From IMG/VR virus record IMGVR_UViG_3300005440_000008, positions 32,001 to 96,000 of that record: a stretch of 64,000 nt of DNA; one strand, given 5' to 3'. The stretch is from a virus (Duplodnaviria; Caudoviricetes). Of this stretch, positions 23,819 to 44,043 are shown in pieces. Under the pieces are notes generated by a model, which did not search any database, was not told where the DNA came from, and was given only the letters and a program-made list of their open reading frames with translations. Position 1 is the first letter of the stretch. Each line of letters starts with the position of its first letter. The position numbers were made by a program, and so were the translations under genes.

Positions 23819-24424
23819 CTACACGATCACGAAGGTGTCCCCGTTCGACGGGGACTCGCCGGTCGGGGTCGCCGAGTAGGTGAGCCGCTTGCTGGACCCG
23901 AGATAGGCCGTGATCGACTGGGCGGAGTCCTTCAGGACCCCGGACGTCCAGAGGATCGCGCGTCCCTTGTAGTGGTCGTCGGTCGCCTCGGTCAGGTTCG
24001 TCGTCGCCTGGGTCGAGGAGAGTGTGCCGGTCACGGCCGCGCCCTCCACGACGGTCCGGGCCGCGTTGGCGGGGACGCGGTTCTCGATCGAGAACTCCGC
24101 GACGACTTCGGCGACCGTCACGCCGTCCACCGTTTCATCCGGGTAGAGCACGACCTGGTAGTCGTGCCCGCTCGCGTAGAACCCGGCATCGGTGTTGTCC
24201 GCCAGGTCTATGGTCACGTGCGTGATGCCCGTCATCGAATCGAAGGGCCCGGTGATCGTGAAGCCAGCCGTCGAAGACCGTTCGGTCGTGCCGTTGTCTT
24301 TGTAGACGCGCAGGTCAGCGGCTTCCCACGCAGACGATTGATCGACGCGCCCGCCACCGAGCTTCCGCGTCGCGAACTTGAAATTGACCGCCGCGCCGAC
24401 CCTGAAGTCTCCGCGATAGCTCAT
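23819..24424 (-). CDS. Virion structural protein
   Basis: Beta-rich; C-terminal TDDHYKGRAILWTSG.L....ITAY.......T..P..GDTF.I module. Confidence 0.7.
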   Translation of the reverse strand: MSYRGDFRVGAAVNFKFATRKLGGGRVDQSSAWEAADLRVYKDNGTTERSSTAGFTITGPFDSMTGITHVTIDLADNTDAGFYASGHDYQVVLYPDETVDGVTVAEVVAEFSIENRVPANAARTVVEGAAVTGTLSSTQATTNLTEATDDHYKGRAILWTSGVLKDSAQSITAYLGSSKRLTYSATPTGESPSNGDTFVIV

Positions 24425-26544
24425 CCGACGAGGACCCCCCCGCCGACGAGGCGCGTGGCGTCAGGCCGCGCCCACGTATAGTCACCCCCAGAGATCAACC
24501 GTTGCCGACCGCTCGGGCTGATCGCCAGGTCCACCGGGTCCGCCCACAGCTCGGTGACGCTCGGAATGGCGACCGCGATGCGGACGCGGACGGGGCCGGG
24601 CTCTTGCGGCGTGAAGGTCACGCTGATCGTCTGGGGCGTCCCGGCGGTGTTGCCCGCTAGCTCCCAGGTGGCGGACGACGATGGCCAGTTGGCGGCCGTC
24701 CCTAGAAAACCGACGCGGCTGGTCGCCATCGCGGCGTTCGTCTGGCCAGCCGTGTTCTTGTACACAGCTTCCAACCAGATGTCGCTGTTTTTGAGCAACG
24801 TCGCGCTGTCGATGTAGACTTCTACGTTGACCGTGACGGGGCTCCCGACCTGATCTTGCTGGAAGACCATCCACGGGCAGTAGAGCGGCGTGGTCAAGCT
24901 GACACCCGCGCCGGACTGGATCAGCCACGAGGTCGGCGTCGTTCCGTCCGCCGACGCGCCCCCGGTTCGGTAGACGTTGGGGTCGAGGTCGCTGACGGTT
25001 CCTTCGTAGGAACGGCGGTACATGTTGTTCGCGCCGCCCAACCCCTGACAGTTGTCGAACCAGGCGACCACGCCGCCCGGGCCGCTCCCGCCGCCGAACA
25101 GCGTGACCGCCCCGTTGACGAGGCAGTCTTCAAACTTGAACTCTCCCAAACCTGCCGCGTTCTGGAGGATGAATTTCCCTGACCCCCAGAGCGAAAGGTC
25201 CACCGCCCGGAAGAACGCGATGGTGGGGTTCGCGGCGGTGGCCTTCATCGCGCCGCCTGGCGTCGTGCTCGTGATGAAACTACCGCCCTCCATGATGAGG
25301 CGCAGCTGGCCGAGCGTGAGCGAGGCGTTCGCGTGACCCGGCAACCGTATCGTCGTGTCCTTGAGGAACAACTGGCAATCGTCCGAGGATGTGCCCGTGG
25401 GACCGAAGGCGATCACCGCGCCCGATCCTGTAGCCGGATTGCGGAGCGAACAGTTGTCGAAGTAGAGCGCCCAAGGCGTGGTCGCGGTGAGCGTCATCGC
25501 GTTTGAGCCCGACCCCGTGCTCGACGAGAAGATGATGCCGTAGAAGTAGCAGGACCCAGACGTCCAGGTGATGCTGAACGCGCCCGTCGTCGTGACCGTC
25601 GCCGTGATCGCAAGGACGGTCGGCGTCGCGGGATCGCCGGTGTCGTCCACGCAGATCACGCGGGTCAGGTTCCCCACCGTGCCGCTAGGAGCGAGGGCCA
25701 TTCCGGACGCCTGCGTCTCGGCGTGGTTGTCCGAAACGTAAATCGTATCGCCCGCTGATTCGTCCGCGAACGCGCCGACCAGCGTGGCGTTCGCCAACGC
25801 CCAGGTGGTCCCGTTGTCCGCGTCGCTCCCGTCCCCGCTGCGGAGATACTGGACCGCGCCCATCAGCGGGACCGCGTCGGCGAGTGAGCTGAGCGCCATC
25901 TGGCCGAGCAGCGAGAGCGCGGCGAGCCCGGCGACGCGACGAAGCTGCGCCTGCCTGCGCGCCGCGAAGCGGGCGCGAGCGTGCCCCGCGCTAAGGTAGT
26001 GGACCCCCGCAGGGGTTTTGCGAACGGCGGGGCTGACATAGGGAATGCCGAGCTTCATGCAGAGTTGCTGAGTCCGCTGCGCCCGCTCGATGAACGCGAA
26101 GCCTTCCGCGAGCGCCCAGGTGAGCGCCTGGAGCCGATCCCCGCCGCACGCCTGGTTCGCGACGGCCTGGAGCCGGTCGGGGACTTCCGGGAGGACGGTC
26201 AGCGACGCGCTGGAGTTCTGCCAGTACCACTGCGCGCCCTGGAGCTTCATCGGTGGGGCCGCTTCTCCGCGCGCCGCCTTGCCTTCGACTTCGCAGAGCC
26301 CTTCCGAGAGCGCCCATGCCCAAATGTTCGTCCGCTTGACGTTGGGCCGCTTGTGCCGCGCTTCCCCCTGCGCCCGCCACGCGACTTCTCCGGCGACGGC
26401 TCCCGCGAGGCGCTCGCTCAGTCGCTCGATCCGCGCGAGCGCGGGTCCGATGACGAGATGATGACCGAGCGTGGTTAGTTCCCACTTGATCTTGTGACGC
26501 TTGCGCCAATCCACGCGGTCGGAGTCGAGGCAGGACAGGTTCAC
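24421..26544 (-). CDS. Beta-helix (tailspike-like) protein with an unusual ~225-aa N-terminal extension
   Basis: YLRSGDGSDADNGTTWALA..TL..A.....AGDTIYV beta-helix cap and FDNC/FEDC rungs; N-terminus has two RHH-like units and a hydrophobic segment. Confidence 0.7.
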   Translation of the reverse strand: MNLSCLDSDRVDWRKRHKIKWELTTLGHHLVIGPALARIERLSERLAGAVAGEVAWRAQGEARHKRPNVKRTNIWAWALSEGLCEVEGKAARGEAAPPMKLQGAQWYWQNSSASLTVLPEVPDRLQAVANQACGGDRLQALTWALAEGFAFIERAQRTQQLCMKLGIPYVSPAVRKTPAGVHYLSAGHARARFAARRQAQLRRVAGLAALSLLGQMALSSLADAVPLMGAVQYLRSGDGSDADNGTTWALANATLVGAFADESAGDTIYVSDNHAETQASGMALAPSGTVGNLTRVICVDDTGDPATPTVLAITATVTTTGAFSITWTSGSCYFYGIIFSSSTGSGSNAMTLTATTPWALYFDNCSLRNPATGSGAVIAFGPTGTSSDDCQLFLKDTTIRLPGHANASLTLGQLRLIMEGGSFITSTTPGGAMKATAANPTIAFFRAVDLSLWGSGKFILQNAAGLGEFKFEDCLVNGAVTLFGGGSGPGGVVAWFDNCQGLGGANNMYRRSYEGTVSDLDPNVYRTGGASADGTTPTSWLIQSGAGVSLTTPLYCPWMVFQQDQVGSPVTVNVEVYIDSATLLKNSDIWLEAVYKNTAGQTNAAMATSRVGFLGTAANWPSSSATWELAGNTAGTPQTISVTFTPQEPGPVRVRIAVAIPSVTELWADPVDLAISPSGRQRLISGGDYTWARPDATRLVGGGVLVG

Positions 26545-26547
26545 GAC

Positions 26548-27003
26548 CTACTCCCCCACCGCCGCGACCAGCGCGGTCCACTGGGACGCCTTGGCCTGGA
26601 GTCGCGTCCTGAGCGACGTGAGGGCGGCTCCGCTGACGCCGAAGAGCGTCCCGAGTTGGTTGTTGGTCAGCGTGTTCAAGAAGGCTCCGAGCGCGCACGC
26701 CTGCTCCCGTGTCGCCGTCCGGTACGCCTCGCGCAGCGCATCGCGGACCTCCGCGATGGTCACGTGATTGGTGGTGACGACGGCCTGGTCTCCTGCCGCG
26801 TAGATGGATCGAAGGTCCTCGGCCAGCTCCTCGCGGGCGAGCCAGCCGATGACAATGGTGATCCGGGCGGCCAAGTTCGCGTCCGAGGCCAACGCCTCGA
26901 TGTCCCGCTGCTGACCCAGGTGGTCGGTGTGCCGCTCGCGGTTGACGACCACGCCATTGGCGAGCCGCCGCGTTGACACCACCACCGAGGATACGATGGG
27001 CAT
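26548..27003 (-). CDS. Hypothetical virion-associated protein
   Basis: 151-aa ORF tightly packed in the operon. Confidence 0.6.
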   Translation of the reverse strand: MPIVSSVVVSTRRLANGVVVNRERHTDHLGQQRDIEALASDANLAARITIVIGWLAREELAEDLRSIYAAGDQAVVTTNHVTIAEVRDALREAYRTATREQACALGAFLNTLTNNQLGTLFGVSGAALTSLRTRLQAKASQWTALVAAVGE

Positions 27004-27005
27004 GC

Positions 27006-28214
27006 TTACGCGTCCTGGAGCACCGTCTCGACTGAGTCCCAGGACGGGATGCCCGGCGGGGTCACGTCCGCCGACGAGCGCAGGGGACGGTAGGCGAACA
27101 CGGCCCCCTGGACCCGATGCACGACGATCAGGAGGTCGTCCTGGATCGAGTAGCCGCCGCGGTTGTAGGTGCCGTTCCACCCCACTCCGGCAACCTCTGG
27201 CGAGTCCGGCGTCACGCCCTCCGTCGGCGCGATGTCGGTGATGGCGAACGTGTCGGGGTTCATTGAGTAGAGCGTGCGGCCTCCGGAGGGGTGGATCCAG
27301 TACACCCCGCTTATCGGATCGCGGACCACGAGGGGCGCGTTCCCGAGCGAATATTGCGCGTTGTACGGCGCGGCGAGCGCCTGCACGCGCCGCTGGTACT
27401 TCCCGCTCGGGAGCGCGTCCCAGACGATGCAGTTGACCGAGGCCGAGAACGGGCCGAAGCCGACGACGCGATCCCGGACAGGATCGTGGAGCAGGCTCAT
27501 GTAGATGTACTGGTTGCTGTTCTCCTGCCCGTCGTCGATGATCTTGGCCTTCTGACCGGGCGGCAGGCGGTGGTCGTAGCTCCGCAGCCGCCCGTTGCTG
27601 CAATAGATGACGCGATCGTGGAGCGTGTCGAGGCAGGCCGAGCATGCCGTGTGCGGAGTGGTCCCGCCCGGCCAACCCAGCATGAAGCTGTCGCCCGCCG
27701 CGCAAATGCCGGTGACCGCGTCGGTCTCCCACGAGAGCGCGCCGCAGCCCGAGCCGTCGTACCAACGCACCCCGCCGAACTGGATGATCTTGCCGGCGTG
27801 GTACACCTGGCCCTGGTAGTTGTGCCGGCTCGCGTAGATCAGGTTCCCCGGCGGCCCGTAGAGCCCGGTCGGGTCCGAGTAGTACGGCAAGCTCGGCTGG
27901 GTCGGGTTGTAGCGCGACGGGATCAGGTCCACCGACGGGCCGCGCAGCATCCGCCAGAGCCCGTCGGCGAGCGTGAACGAGTCGGACTCGTTACTGGCGC
28001 TGCTCCCGTGGCCACCGCAGGCCGCAAGGTAGAGCTTCCCCGCGACCGGGTCCATCGCGCCGCCGCACCAGTCGAAGACCTTCTCCGCCTGGTTGACCCC
28101 CTTGACGGCGGTGATCGTCTTGCCGGTGCCGGGCTGTCGCCAAAGGGTCGCGCCGACGCTTTGGCCCGGCTGCGAGACAACGCCCCACTGGCCTGCGGTG
28201 ACCGGAAGGGTCAT
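27006..28214 (-). CDS. Kelch-like beta-propeller with C-terminal DxxPPxxPxW strand
   Basis: W.GGAMD...GKLYL..GGH....NE; SRHNY; repeated D....V blades; ends DVTPPGIPSWDSVETVLQDA. Confidence 0.75.
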   Translation of the reverse strand: MTLPVTAGQWGVVSQPGQSVGATLWRQPGTGKTITAVKGVNQAEKVFDWCGGAMDPVAGKLYLAACGGHGSSASNESDSFTLADGLWRMLRGPSVDLIPSRYNPTQPSLPYYSDPTGLYGPPGNLIYASRHNYQGQVYHAGKIIQFGGVRWYDGSGCGALSWETDAVTGICAAGDSFMLGWPGGTTPHTACSACLDTLHDRVIYCSNGRLRSYDHRLPPGQKAKIIDDGQENSNQYIYMSLLHDPVRDRVVGFGPFSASVNCIVWDALPSGKYQRRVQALAAPYNAQYSLGNAPLVVRDPISGVYWIHPSGGRTLYSMNPDTFAITDIAPTEGVTPDSPEVAGVGWNGTYNRGGYSIQDDLLIVVHRVQGAVFAYRPLRSSADVTPPGIPSWDSVETVLQDA

Positions 28215-28216
28215 CG

Positions 28217-28540
28217 CTAGTTGTCCTGGAAGACCCCGACGATGGAATCCCACTGCGGCATATCCGGCGGGATCAGGTCCACCGACGGGACGGTGACATC
28301 GCGCTCGGCCGGGAGACTCGCGTTGCCGGCCGCGTCGACCGCGACCAGCCCGAGCCGGACCACGTAGGCGGCCTCGGTCGTCGGGAGCGGATCGTAGGTG
28401 AAGCTCGCCTTGCCGTCCGCACCCTTGGGCCGCTCGCCCTTGAGGTCGCCGTCGAGGAGAAAACGGAAGAGGGCCGTGTCGGTGTCGGCCGCGCCGAGCG
28501 CCGCGAGAGCGTTAGCGGTAATGACAAAGACCTTGGCCAT
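28217..28540 (-). CDS. Circularly permuted single FN3-like domain (candidate fibre shaft subunit)
   Basis: FRFLLDG, SFTYDPL, LVAVDAAGNASLP FN3 motifs; ends DLIPPDMPQWDSIVGVFQDN. Confidence 0.75.
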   Translation of the reverse strand: MAKVFVITANALAALGAADTDTALFRFLLDGDLKGERPKGADGKASFTYDPLPTTEAAYVVRLGLVAVDAAGNASLPAERDVTVPSVDLIPPDMPQWDSIVGVFQDN

Positions 28541-28543
28541 TGA

Positions 28544-30922
28544 TTAGCCCTCCAGGTGGGCCTCCACCAACTCCCAGGTCGGAGCCAACGGAGGCGTGGT
28601 GTCGGCCGGTGGTGTGGTGGTCAGCGGGACGACGCGCGTATTCCAGCGGATGTAATAGATGATCGCGGCGCACTCGGCATCGGTGAGATTGCGCGGGTAG
28701 CCGCTGCCCGCGCCCGCGCGAAGGAAGGCCGCGAGATCGCCGTCACGCAACTCGGCCAGGTCATCGAAGTTGGGGAGACCGAGGTGTCCCTGCCCGTCCT
28801 CGCCGTGGGTCAAGGCAAAGGCCGGGTACGGGTCGGCGGCTCGCCCTTGCCACAGACCCTTCCCGGTCTGATACAGGCTCTTGTTCACGGCCGGATCTGT
28901 CGGGAGCCGGCGCGTCTGCACCCAGAGCCCCTGCATCGTGCCGGTGCCGACGATATACACGCGGCCCATCCCTGACGCGACCATCGTCGGGTAGTGGCAG
29001 CTCGTGAGGTTCCGGTTACTCCCTTCGACCAGGAATCGGTCTAGGCTGCTGGTGTTCGGGAAGAAGCTCCCGAGCCAGGCCGTCATGTCCTTTGAGTAGA
29101 TCCGCGCCGAGTCCTGTGTCCACTGGGTGGTGCGGATGCAGTCTTTCGGCCCGCACGTGCCGTCCCAGTTGATGTCGATGCAGATGTCCCGCGTGTTGAA
29201 GCCGGTGGCGAACGTCGGGAGCTTGCCGAGGAAGCGGCCGGTCTGGGTGCGGAAATCCCACTTGAACAGGCCGTCCAGGTAGCGGCAGGAAAAGATCAGG
29301 TTGCCCTCGGAGTCAAAGCGGACGCTCTGGGGGAAGGCGAAGCCGAACGTGCCCCGGCCGCCGTCGCGCCGGAACCGGGTGAGCAGGGCGTCCTGGGAGA
29401 AGGACGACCGGCCCATGCCGCGCCCGTTCACCCGGACATCGGGATGTTCGAGGGTGATCGAGGCGTCGGCCGTCGCGGACTGAATCCGGTCCATCACCAC
29501 GCCCGTCTTCGCGTCGATCAGCAGGATCGCGTGGTGCATGAAGAGCGGGAGCCACATCTCGTCGGTGTTCCAGATGCGGCAGGGATCCCAGGGCTCCGAC
29601 CCGTGGTCGAGCGGCGTGAACATCGTGATCTCGGGCGGGCGCCCCGGGGCCTCGTGGCACGGCCGGTGGTTCGCCTTCTGGATGCAGTAGCCGAGGGTGT
29701 TGCTGATGAGGTGTTCCTCGTGATGCACGTCGGCGGCCGGCGTCGGGTAGGGGCCGAACGGGACCGCACCCCACGGCTCGATCAGCTTCGGCCGGAAGTC
29801 CCCCACGGTCTGCATCTGGCCCTCGCGCACAGGCCCCCAGGTGTCCGGCCCCGGGAAGTAGCCGGTCGTCCGCGACGAGGTGGGATGCGCGGTGAAATCA
29901 TCCTCGGCCCGCAGGCGACGACCGGCGACCGTCGAGAGCCGCCCATCGAAGCGGTGGGCGAACGCGAGGCGCCCGTTCGTGCAGGTGATGAAACAACCGC
30001 CCGCCCTGGCCGGGTTCTCGTGCCGCGCGACCCAGCCCGACCAGCCGTGCCCGAGTTGGCCGCTTCCGCGAGGGCCGTCCACGAGCGGCACCCCGTCGAG
30101 CGGGCTCAGGACTGACGGGTCGGGCGGGATGACGTTGCTGTGCACCCCCTGGAAGTAGTCGTACTGCTCCTTCCCGGTGATGACGATGCGCGGGGTGCCC
30201 GGGCGCTTCTTGCTCTCGATGACGCCGATCCGGCGCGCCATCGCCTTGGTGGACACGCTGCCAAGGCGGGTGTAGTGGAAGAAGTCCTTGGCCGCCTCCG
30301 TCGTGTAGAACGGAATCGTCGTGTACGGCTGCGCGGTGGGGCGCAGCTCGTCCGGTCCGGGGCGGAACGGCACCACCACCCGGCGGTTGATGGGCTCGCC
30401 CGGGTGCCAGATCATCGCCGGCATCTGGCCATTGACGACGTACCAGATCCCGTCCCACTTCGTCGGTCCGGCCCAGCACCAGCCCGCCTGGGTGAGCGGC
30501 AACGGCTCGCCCGTCGTGAACTTGCAGGTCGCCGCCCAGAAGTTGTCGGTCAGAGGGCCGCCCGTGAAGCGGGCCCAGAGGACGTGCTGAAGGGTCGGGC
30601 CCGTGCGCGGGAGTACCTGGCGATCAGTCACGCACCAGCGGTCAGCGGTGCGGGGGGTCATCTGGGCCACGGCGAGGGCGTCGAGGTCGATCTGGAAGCG
30701 GTAGGGCGGCGCCAGGATCGGCGAGCCGAGCGGCTGGTCGTCGAGGAAGAACTGGACGGTCGGCCAGGGGCTCATCGTGACGGCCGCCCCGCTCTCGGTC
30801 AACCACTGGAACTCGAACGAGAACAAGCCCGACAGGTCGTGGACGTGCTCCCCCCGGTAGTAGCGGGAGCCGAGCGTATTGTCGCCCTCGGCGGGAGTCT
30901 TGACGACGAGGTAGTGACGCAT
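28544..30922 (-). CDS. Ig-like + NHL-type beta-propeller protein with C-terminal DxxPPxxPxW strand
   Basis: VQFFLDDQPLG...APPY Ig motif; LIEPWG, SEPWD, FAFPQSVRFDSEGNLI NHL-like blades; ends DTTPPLAPTWELVEAHLEG. Confidence 0.75.
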   Translation of the reverse strand: MRHYLVVKTPAEGDNTLGSRYYRGEHVHDLSGLFSFEFQWLTESGAAVTMSPWPTVQFFLDDQPLGSPILAPPYRFQIDLDALAVAQMTPRTADRWCVTDRQVLPRTGPTLQHVLWARFTGGPLTDNFWAATCKFTTGEPLPLTQAGWCWAGPTKWDGIWYVVNGQMPAMIWHPGEPINRRVVVPFRPGPDELRPTAQPYTTIPFYTTEAAKDFFHYTRLGSVSTKAMARRIGVIESKKRPGTPRIVITGKEQYDYFQGVHSNVIPPDPSVLSPLDGVPLVDGPRGSGQLGHGWSGWVARHENPARAGGCFITCTNGRLAFAHRFDGRLSTVAGRRLRAEDDFTAHPTSSRTTGYFPGPDTWGPVREGQMQTVGDFRPKLIEPWGAVPFGPYPTPAADVHHEEHLISNTLGYCIQKANHRPCHEAPGRPPEITMFTPLDHGSEPWDPCRIWNTDEMWLPLFMHHAILLIDAKTGVVMDRIQSATADASITLEHPDVRVNGRGMGRSSFSQDALLTRFRRDGGRGTFGFAFPQSVRFDSEGNLIFSCRYLDGLFKWDFRTQTGRFLGKLPTFATGFNTRDICIDINWDGTCGPKDCIRTTQWTQDSARIYSKDMTAWLGSFFPNTSSLDRFLVEGSNRNLTSCHYPTMVASGMGRVYIVGTGTMQGLWVQTRRLPTDPAVNKSLYQTGKGLWQGRAADPYPAFALTHGEDGQGHLGLPNFDDLAELRDGDLAAFLRAGAGSGYPRNLTDAECAAIIYYIRWNTRVVPLTTTPPADTTPPLAPTWELVEAHLEG

Positions 30923-31541: not shown

Positions 31542-32215
31542 TGCCTCGCCGGCAGCCCCTCTAGCGCGGGCGGCACCGCCTTCCCACACGTCGGCTCGAG
31601 GGACTTCAAGTTGGCGTAGTTGGCGACCTCGCCGGCGAGCTCCTGCAGCGCCGGCGCGTTCCCCGGCCCGATGGCGCGGAGGCGGTCCGCGATGTGCTGC
31701 GGGTTCAGCATCAACAGATGCTCGGTCACGCGCGCGTCGATCGTGGCGAGATCTCGCCGGAGACACAGCGCCTCGGTGTCCAGGGAGCTGTTCGCCCAGA
31801 CCATGCGCTCGTCGCTGTGGCCGACCACGGTGATGGTCAGGAGCGCCGCGCGCATATAGATCGTCGCCTTGGGCTCGTTCTGCATCACCGCGGCCGTGCC
31901 CGCCGCGAGCCCGCCCCCGATGGGGATCAGCTGCATGGCGATGGACGTCGGCGCAAAGAAGCTGAGCGCCGCCATCGCGGCGACCGACACGCCCGCGGTC
32001 AGCGCCCCCGCGTAGAGCGCGTCCCGGTTGATCCGGCCGCTGACCAGGTAGCCGTCGATCTGCTGGTAGGCCAGCTCCTTCACGTCGGTGTAGGAGGGCC
32101 GCAGGACGTCGGTGCGCTGGGTCATGGCCGCGGGCGGGACCACGCGGGGCACGTGGCCGAGGCTCGTACAGCCGGTCAGCAGGACCGCCAGAAGAACGAG
32201 AAGGGGGCGGCGCAT
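31538..32215 (-). CDS. Lipoprotein with hydrophobic hairpin
   Basis: MRRPLLVLLAVLLTGC lipobox. Confidence 0.75.
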   Translation of the reverse strand: MRRPLLVLLAVLLTGCTSLGHVPRVVPPAAMTQRTDVLRPSYTDVKELAYQQIDGYLVSGRINRDALYAGALTAGVSVAAMAALSFFAPTSIAMQLIPIGGGLAAGTAAVMQNEPKATIYMRAALLTITVVGHSDERMVWANSSLDTEALCLRRDLATIDARVTEHLLMLNPQHIADRLRAIGPGNAPALQELAGEVANYANLKSLEPTCGKAVPPALEGLPARQ

Positions 32216-43575: not shown

Positions 43576-44043
43576 CTACTGGTTCTCGGGCGCGCCCGCG
43601 CTGATGGCCAGCGCGACGGCCTCGCTCGGGTCGACCTGGAGATCGAGCGCGCCAGAGATCGAGCGCACGCCCTCGCCGAGGTCCGCGTCGGCGGTCACGT
43701 TGATCTGGCACGCGCCGGGGACGAGCGCGACGACGGTCGCGGACAGCCCGTCCTCGGCGACCTCGAGCGTGGCCACGGCGGGATCGGAGGCGGCCCACTG
43801 GGGCACCCCGTCCACCCGGGCCGGCCGGCCCTTCACGTCGACCGGCTGAATCGCGAGCGCGCACTTCTGTGTGTCCTGCAGGATGAGCTTGGCCATCGGA
43901 CCCTCCTGGAATCGTTCGCACGTGGTGATGGGCCCGATGACGAAGTCGAGCCGGCCGGTCGGGCCCGAACCCGGCGGGCGACGGGGACACAGGACGCGAC
44001 GGAGCCAGCATCGGAGCCAGGCAAGCTGCGCGCGGCGGCGCAT
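43576..44043 (-). CDS. Ig-like (Big_2-like) protein with two possible starts (44043 and 43896)
   Basis: QWAASDPAVATL, G.CQINVTAD; AGGAGG RBS before the internal ATG 43896. Confidence 0.75.
   Translation of the reverse strand: MRRRAQLAWLRCWLRRVLCPRRPPGSGPTGRLDFVIGPITTCERFQEGPMAKLILQDTQKCALAIQPVDVKGRPARVDGVPQWAASDPAVATLEVAEDGLSATVVALVPGACQINVTADADLGEGVRSISGALDLQVDPSEAVALAISAGAPENQ

Follow-up and report, generated by a model that had tools for sequence, protein, structure and literature searches.

We analyzed a window of 64,000 nucleotides (positions 32,001 to 96,000 of the IMG/VR virus record IMGVR_UViG_3300005440_000008) from an uncultured tailed phage that is represented by a single contig of 104,033 bases with a G+C content of 66-73%. 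Three tightly packed genes on the minus strand of this window, here called A, B, and C, encode proteins that end in the same short C-terminal tail, and the middle one, B, resembles a fibronectin type III (FN3) domain that lacks its first strand (Table 1). The frame of B opens one codon past the stop of A, a single TAA, and B has its own ATG with a Shine-Dalgarno sequence, GGAGGG, 7 nucleotides upstream. Since the last codons of A (..L-E-G) also form this Shine-Dalgarno sequence, the end of the A tail is doubly constrained. The start positions of gene A (30922, MRHYLVV) and gene C (28214, MTLPVT) were set by a close relative, the 28.5-kb Joint Genome Institute (JGI) contig L001, in which all three genes and all three tails are present. 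A preliminary description of the locus had proposed that B polymerizes into a pilus-like fiber to which A and C add interchangeable propeller tips. Our analysis points instead to an arrangement in which A, B, and C are joined non-covalently by a split FN3 domain, completed by strand complementation in trans, in 1:1 joints or short chains; we regard this reading as about evenly poised between right and wrong.

The three tails share the pattern D..PP..P.[WYF][DE]. Exactly three copies of this motif occur in the six-frame translation of the 104,033-base contig, all of them at the C-termini of A, B, and C and each 8-9 residues ahead of the stop, with a short hydrophobic-patterned stretch after D..PP..P.W[DE]. 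The number of copies expected from the residue composition is 0.02; in 60 first-order Markov contigs the motif appeared 0.03 times on average and never more than once. The common motif that had been noticed in the preliminary description is thus borne out by three copies against 0.02-0.03 expected. The tail-coding DNA is only ~60% alike among the three genes, which indicates that the peptide level is what is conserved and argues against the tails having spread by recent duplication of DNA or by gene conversion, an origin that we rejected. As a side observation, a stretch of 28 nucleotides coding for PSVDLIP in the linker of B was found to be 93% identical to a stretch inside C (residues ~93-100) and 75% identical to the linker of the C tail. 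This repeat may be a recombination scar from the joining of C behind B, or it may have arisen by chance.

The AlphaFold2 (AF2) model of B, calculated from a five-row alignment, is a beta-sandwich with a predicted local distance difference test score (pLDDT) of 71.5 and strands at residues 4-11, 22-29, 44-49, 58-69, 78-85, and 97-104. The best Foldseek matches of this model were bacterial FN3-like modules (3pe9, E 5e-3). In VIA-align, residues 3-88 of the model aligned with residues 15-90 of 3pe9_D (Z 7.5, root-mean-square deviation [rmsd] 2.0, 71 residues aligned) and residues 4-84 with residues 573-644 of 1k85 (Z 6.3, rmsd 2.6, 71 aligned). For B alone, 71-75 residues could generally be aligned at Z 6-7.5, and the matches begin 15-20 residues into the FN3 targets, past strand A. 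Because its frame opens only one codon past the stop of A, B is without an N-terminal strand A, and in all five lineages described below it starts at strand B, so that the FN3 strands are not all on one polypeptide. The models thus support the proposal, first made from the sequence, that B has an FN3-type fold from which the first strand is missing.

No family, including fn3 (PF00041) or any Big_x family, was found for B in Pfam at E values up to 0.1, and its homology to FN3 was visible only by phmmer, which matched it to repeats in proteins with fn3, Big_13, or Big_7 domains. In tandem FN3/Big_13 proteins, a ...VDL.PP..P boundary recurs between the repeats, and when B is aligned with these proteins, its part between strand F and the tail covers their F-G hairpin, this boundary, and the start of the next repeat. 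The alignment to repeat boundaries suggests that the B tail is a normal FN3 inter-domain linker and strand A with no domain after it. The length of the linker ahead of the tail, 8-11 residues, is that of an ordinary FN3 inter-domain linker; in lineage L003 it is 2-3 residues. The earlier assignment of the tail motif to the opening of FN3 strand A consequently agrees with the tandem proteins, where it is the canonical linker together with strand A of the next domain.

To place the A tail relative to B, the last 100 residues of A were translated through the stop into B (table 6), likewise in three other lineages, and the alignment of the products was modeled with AF2. In the resulting read-through model the A tail forms a strand (residues 90-103) paired with the first strand of B, while B's own tail is unstructured (pLDDT 28-40) once the A tail precedes B. 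Residues 83-186 of this model match FN3 domains over their full length, starting at residue one of the domain, for instance 1k85 557-644 (Z 9.3, rmsd 2.3, 84 aligned), 3pe9_B 1-90 (Z 9.4, rmsd 2.5, 84 aligned), and 4u3h (Z 9.2, rmsd 2.1, 85 aligned). Chains at Z values of at least 8 numbered 108 for the A tail with B and none for B alone, whose best value was 7.5.

A complex of separate chains, the last 100 aa (amino acids) of A and two copies of B, was also predicted from six-row alignments and scored at the A-B interface. The score was 0.62, compared with 0.26 for the best of three controls, and the tool rated the model as supportive of binding; the mark used for this score was passed by 58 of 80 solved complexes and by 2 of 110 mismatched pairs. 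At least 76% of the contacts agreed in the complex runs, and the partner had a pLDDT of at least 81. The predicted interface comprises residues 82-100 of the A fragment, which are exactly the tail, and residues 1-15, 63-69, and 73-85 of B. The two chains run antiparallel there, residue 91 of A lying against residues 9-12 of B and residue 96 of A against residue 7 of B, just like strands A and B of FN3. Both the complex and the read-through models thus place the A tail in the vacant strand-A position of B, in line with the preliminary description, and from them we infer the docking geometry of the A tail on B.

Relatives of the locus are few. Word-based protein searches returned one close relative each for B and C and three further relatives of A. 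The full HMMER search with B yielded mostly single repeats in giant tandem FN3/Big_13/Big_7 proteins and one free-standing match, a 98-aa protein of contig L002, just upstream of which lies a 748-aa homologue of A with 28% identity. Profile searches with A added the lineages L003, L004/5/6, and L007/8, so that together with the window and L001, which count as one lineage, five lineages were available. The homologues of A in L002, L003, L004, and L007 are 28-49% identical, and in every lineage A is followed immediately by a B of 94-110 aa. A and B are therefore a conserved pair. Relatives of C were found in L001 only (85% identity): tblastn against 50,697 phage records gave zero matches for C, and a search of viral contigs gave nothing. 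A profile search of genome contigs with A was likewise negative. The sole match of a narrower B profile, L009, turned out to be an ordinary 953-aa fiber with a complete internal FN3 domain and was rejected as a split system.

Across the five lineages, the tails of A and B are more alike within a lineage than between lineages, and each lineage's tail motif is confined to those C-termini in its own locus. The motifs themselves differ (Table 1). Among the 120 possible permutations, the true A/B tail pairs had the highest summed ungapped BLOSUM62 score, ahead of all 119 others, whether tails of 12, 14, 16, or 20 residues were compared; with five lineages, 1 in 120 is the floor of this test. This co-variation is the strongest evidence at the level of sequence that the tails have a common job, binding either one site or each other's partner. 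Since the B tail matches the A tail in every lineage, the B tail must matter as well. The loss of the shared tails from homologous loci, which the preliminary description had held to speak against its proposal, was not observed; homologous loci conserve the tails and co-vary in them. Its notion of two interchangeable tips fared less well, since C is confined to the window and L001, whereas conservation centers on the A-B pair.

Several points weigh against a split FN3 joint. All structural statements are predictions from alignments of 5-7 rows, with a model pLDDT of 62-72. The read-through model is biased, as the covalent link favors a hairpin, and its junction has a pLDDT of 46-57. The complex job used alignments of our own making and three chains, differing in this from the calibration of the tool, and its controls were unrelated proteins rather than other strand-A-like peptides. 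FN3 being a very familiar fold, a pass in the complex prediction may mean only that the A tail is like a strand A, and not that it binds. Moreover, AF2 gives B's own tail as a strand when B is modeled alone (pLDDT ~61), so that B may be a stable, self-complemented monomer that is closed to A. This folding back of the C-terminal strand into its own domain, named in the preliminary description as an outcome that would argue against it, is seen at the level of the AF2 model of B alone. Finally, the A-B family is rare, with about six loci in very large collections.

In the split-joint reading, the C-terminal ~19 residues of A, and those of C by analogy, would be a Pro-rich inter-domain linker and the missing strand, which would insert antiparallel to the first strand of B and complete the FN3 fold in trans. 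In free B, its own tail would probably lie in its own groove as a placeholder, in the manner of a self-complemented type V pilin monomer. An incoming tail of A or C would displace it, and the freed B tail would then enter another B or stay free; this scheme of self-placement and displacement leads us to expect 1:1 joints or short chains rather than a long fiber. The polarity may be the reverse of that in the preliminary description: were A or C the root, anchored to the virion through the end away from the tail, B units would be attached farther out, and a base acceptor would be unnecessary.

According to the preliminary description, B would polymerize head to tail into a chaperone-free FN3 filament, each subunit donating its C-terminal strand to the next; A and C would be alternative caps, at the acceptor end, and the donor end would sit on a virion acceptor. 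Taken furthest, B would be a self-propagating subunit whose copies link up in the cytoplasm with no need of a chaperone, usher, or protease, giving a phage filament or whisker onto which unrelated propellers are plugged by the shared strand (A everywhere, C in one lineage). B indeed combines an acceptor groove with a donor tail, the latter agreeing with the A tail in all lineages, and in the read-through model it is the filling of the groove by the A tail that frees the B tail. The linker of 8-11 residues, normal between FN3 domains, suits a head-to-tail arrangement. On geometric grounds only, linkers of this length would barely span the domain in cis, and that of L003, with 2-3 residues, would be too short for a return to the canonical strand-A position, which leans toward complementation in trans. 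Head-to-tail strand donation is the way in which type V pili work (PMC13655056). However, AF2 puts the B tail in cis when B is alone, C is absent from three of the five lineages, and no base acceptor was found. A hidden Markov model (HMM) of the B family, run against all 1,099 stop-to-stop segments of the contig, recovered only B and no second acceptor domain, and no other protein on the contig bears the motif. We therefore consider a long filament unlikely.

Where a phage has more than one receptor-binding protein, these often attach by the same docking module. The tails of A, B, and C could likewise all dock on a third partner, for example a protein of the virion, with B as a circularly permuted, self-complemented FN3 passenger. 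A match of the tails within each locus is equally expected if all of them bind one outside site, and the AF2 model of B alone, with its tail as a strand, fits such a passenger. This explanation fails, however, to account for the agreement of the tail with the missing strand of B in both sequence and length and for the complete FN3 model obtained from the A tail and B. No candidate partner was found on the contig, and the adjacency of A and B is kept in all lineages although the flanking genes vary. Docking on a third partner thus seems improbable to us.

The arrangement could also be a relic of gene fission, in which an ancestral A-FN3-FN3 fiber gene was cut by a stop in the A-B loop, with occasional read-through to an A-B fusion and without a role of the tails in trans. 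In four of the five lineages (window/L001, L002, L003, and L007), B is in the frame of A after a single stop and 1-7 codons, which has a probability of ~0.045 by chance, and the tail is a canonical inter-domain boundary. The shared frame suggests that a longer A-FN3 gene was once split in two, and some read-through fusion is possible. As a full explanation of the present genes, a relic is very improbable: L004 has B in another frame than A, the stop codons, TAA or TAG, have no context in common, and B has its own ATG and a recognizable ribosome-binding site in at least three lineages (GGAGGG in the window, AAGGAG in L002, and TAGGAGGA in L007). In addition, the split between A and B is kept down to 28% identity of A, and the B tail, with no domain after it, is conserved and tracks the A tail, unlike a relic. 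A sequencing or assembly error as the cause of the split is excluded by its occurrence in five lineages, by the start codon of B, and by the differing frames in L004.

Proteins A, B, and C gave no matches in Pfam, PHROGs, NCBIfam, or PADLOC, and sequence searches of solved structures with A and C returned nothing meaningful. The ESM Atlas neighbors of A carry NHL/SGL and cytochrome-c families (scores 0.79-0.83, below the tool line of 0.9; predicted template modeling [pTM] score of A's own model 0.48), while C, whose own ESM Atlas model has a pTM of 0.80, has Kelch clusters or unnamed phage proteins as neighbors at template modeling (TM) scores of 0.69-0.75. Only the ESM Atlas neighbors speak for the labels Kelch-like for C and Ig+NHL for A, given in the preliminary description; Pfam, PHROGs, and NCBIfam are silent on them. 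An NHL/SGL propeller with a cytochrome-c-like domain in A is a lead only. The helical domain that precedes the tail of A (residues 693-792) is kept in all lineages, with the pattern HGE[DE].QG ... IY.[IT]RW. No CxxCH heme motif was seen in the C-terminal 100 residues of A, and the domain may be a degenerate cytochrome-c-like fold.

The genes around A, B, and C are of phage structural or lysis type. On the same strand, the head side is represented by genes for a large terminase, a lambda-type portal, a Mu F-like protein, and a capsid protein, and the tail side by an HK97 gp10-like protein and a tape measure protein of 1,990 aa. The gap between head and tail genes is filled by membrane, lipoprotein, and DUF1353-like genes, after which A, B, and C come next; the lysis-type block of the window is oddly placed, with head-completion genes on one side and tail genes on the other. 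In every lineage, the A-B module closes the run of tail or structural genes and adjoins lysis-type genes, among them those for GH108, Hydrolase_2, DUF5675, DUF1353, and small membrane proteins. Only from this gene position, we infer that the late phage proteins A, B, and C are sited on the virion. Their N-termini carry neither a signal nor a lipobox sequence, which agrees with the absence of signal peptides stated in the preliminary description. The two reading frames directly downstream of C, coding for 151 and 707 aa, are without the tail motif, and this pair (24421-27003) is absent after C in L001. A small Big_2-like protein encoded between the portal and Mu F-like genes has a C-terminal stretch unlike the tails of A, B, and C.

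Table 1. Genes, tails, junctions, and neighboring features of the A/B/C locus and its relatives, in the coordinates of the window or contig named
Feature	Sequence	Position	Strand	Description
Gene A	window	28544-30922	minus	792 aa; N-terminal beta-sandwich, probable NHL/SGL-type propeller, small helical domain, Pro-rich linker, putative donor tail
Gene B	window	28217-28540	minus	107 aa; FN3-type domain from strand B (residues 1-85), linker 86-96, tail strand 97-104
Gene C	window	27006-28214	minus	402 aa; probable Kelch-like propeller and putative donor tail
A tail	window	28547-28603	minus	last 19 residues, linker and putative donor strand; motif match, contacts B in the complex model
B tail	window	28220-28279	minus	motif as in the A and C tails
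C tail	window	27009-27068	minus	motif match; nearest to the B tail; kept in L001 with conservative changes
Shared tail motif	window and L001			P.W[DE]
Shared tail motif	L002			hydrophobic.[VI]....W
Shared tail motif	L003			LRVAK.LTL
Shared tail motif	L004			L[IV]..FSW
Shared tail motif	L007			APTL[KR]L[IV]
A-B junction	window	28538-28549		in frame
A-B junction	L002	2343-2369		in frame
A-B junction	L003	619-627		in frame
A-B junction	L007	3397-3411		in frame
A-B junction	L004	10314-10321		out of frame
Shine-Dalgarno sequence of B	window	28546-28553	minus	GGAGGG
Helical domain of A	window	28547-28846	minus	ahead of the tail
PSVDLIP stretch	window	28265-28292	minus	linker of B
Similar stretch	window	27915-27942	minus	inside C
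Similar stretch	window	27054-27081	minus	linker of the C tail
151-aa protein	window	26548-27003	minus	directly downstream of C
707-aa open reading frame	window	24421-26544	minus	downstream of C
Big_2-like small protein	window	43576-44043	minus	between portal and Mu F-like genes
Lysis-type genes beside A-B	window	30969-34695		gene annotation
Lysis-type genes beside A-B	L001	5786-7602		gene annotation
Lysis-type genes beside A-B	L004	10606-12331		gene annotation
Lysis-type genes beside A-B	L007	4109-4570		gene annotation

The closest parallel to the proposed joint comes from phage Tuc2009, where a 25-residue C-terminal hairpin of BppU completes the beta-sandwich sheet of BppA to give a composite titin-like domain (PMC4742702; PDB 5e7t). 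As in the A-B pair, where this is indicated by two predictors only, a C-terminal extension completes the sandwich of a separately encoded protein. In Tuc2009, however, the hairpin is on a baseplate protein and the acceptor ends a large carbohydrate-binding protein, whereas here a single strand is found on large proteins, the putative acceptor is a free-standing 107-aa FN3 domain that carries a donor strand itself, and the tag is present on two or three proteins. No sequence relation of A, B, or C to BppU or BppA was detected in the PHROGs search, the only one made for it.

In the type V pili of Bacteroidota (FimA, Mfa1), a self-complemented C-terminal donor strand subsequently enters the groove vacated by the N-terminal strand of a neighbor, with tip, stalk, and anchor subunits alike, and the pilins are exported lipoproteins whose groove is opened by gingipain cleavage (PMC13655056). 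The C-terminal donor, the groove of an N-terminal strand, and the self-complemented monomer (for B in the model only) would be common to both systems. In contrast to type V pilins, A, B, and C are without a signal peptide, B is made without the strand, and the fold is of the FN3 type and not a pilin fold. Chaperone-usher pili (Fim/Pap) also have an incomplete Ig-like fold that is completed by a strand of another chain, but there it is the C-terminal G strand that is missing, the donor is N-terminal, and a periplasmic chaperone and an usher take part, whereas in the A-B pair strand A is missing and the donor would be C-terminal. Cohesin-dockerin systems resemble A, B, and C in that unrelated proteins bear one C-terminal tag for a common module; dockerin, however, is a folded calcium-binding domain that docks on the intact surface of cohesin, while here a single strand would complete the fold. 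Particular to A, B, and C are the combination of socket and plug in one protein, the sharing of the plug by two or three unrelated proteins, and the co-variation of the plugs over five lineages. In the open-access literature we found no description of donor-strand assembly in phage fibers or virions.

If the split-joint reading is correct, phages use a plug of one strand and a small Ig-like socket to attach heads that are unrelated to each other, with binding or enzymatic functions, and plug and socket co-evolve as lineage-specific pairs. This would explain how accessory virion proteins can be swapped between phages without a shared folded anchor domain, and donor-strand complementation, familiar from pili, would then also operate in assemblies that viruses build in the cytoplasm. 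The five sequence variants would further represent natural orthogonal peptide-domain pairs and possible non-covalent protein connectors. As the acceptor itself carries a donor strand, the question of a chaperone-free FN3 polymer is directly testable with a protein of 107 residues; should the filament prove true, a pilus-type assembly principle would operate in a virus, with lineage-specific pairs of plug and socket.

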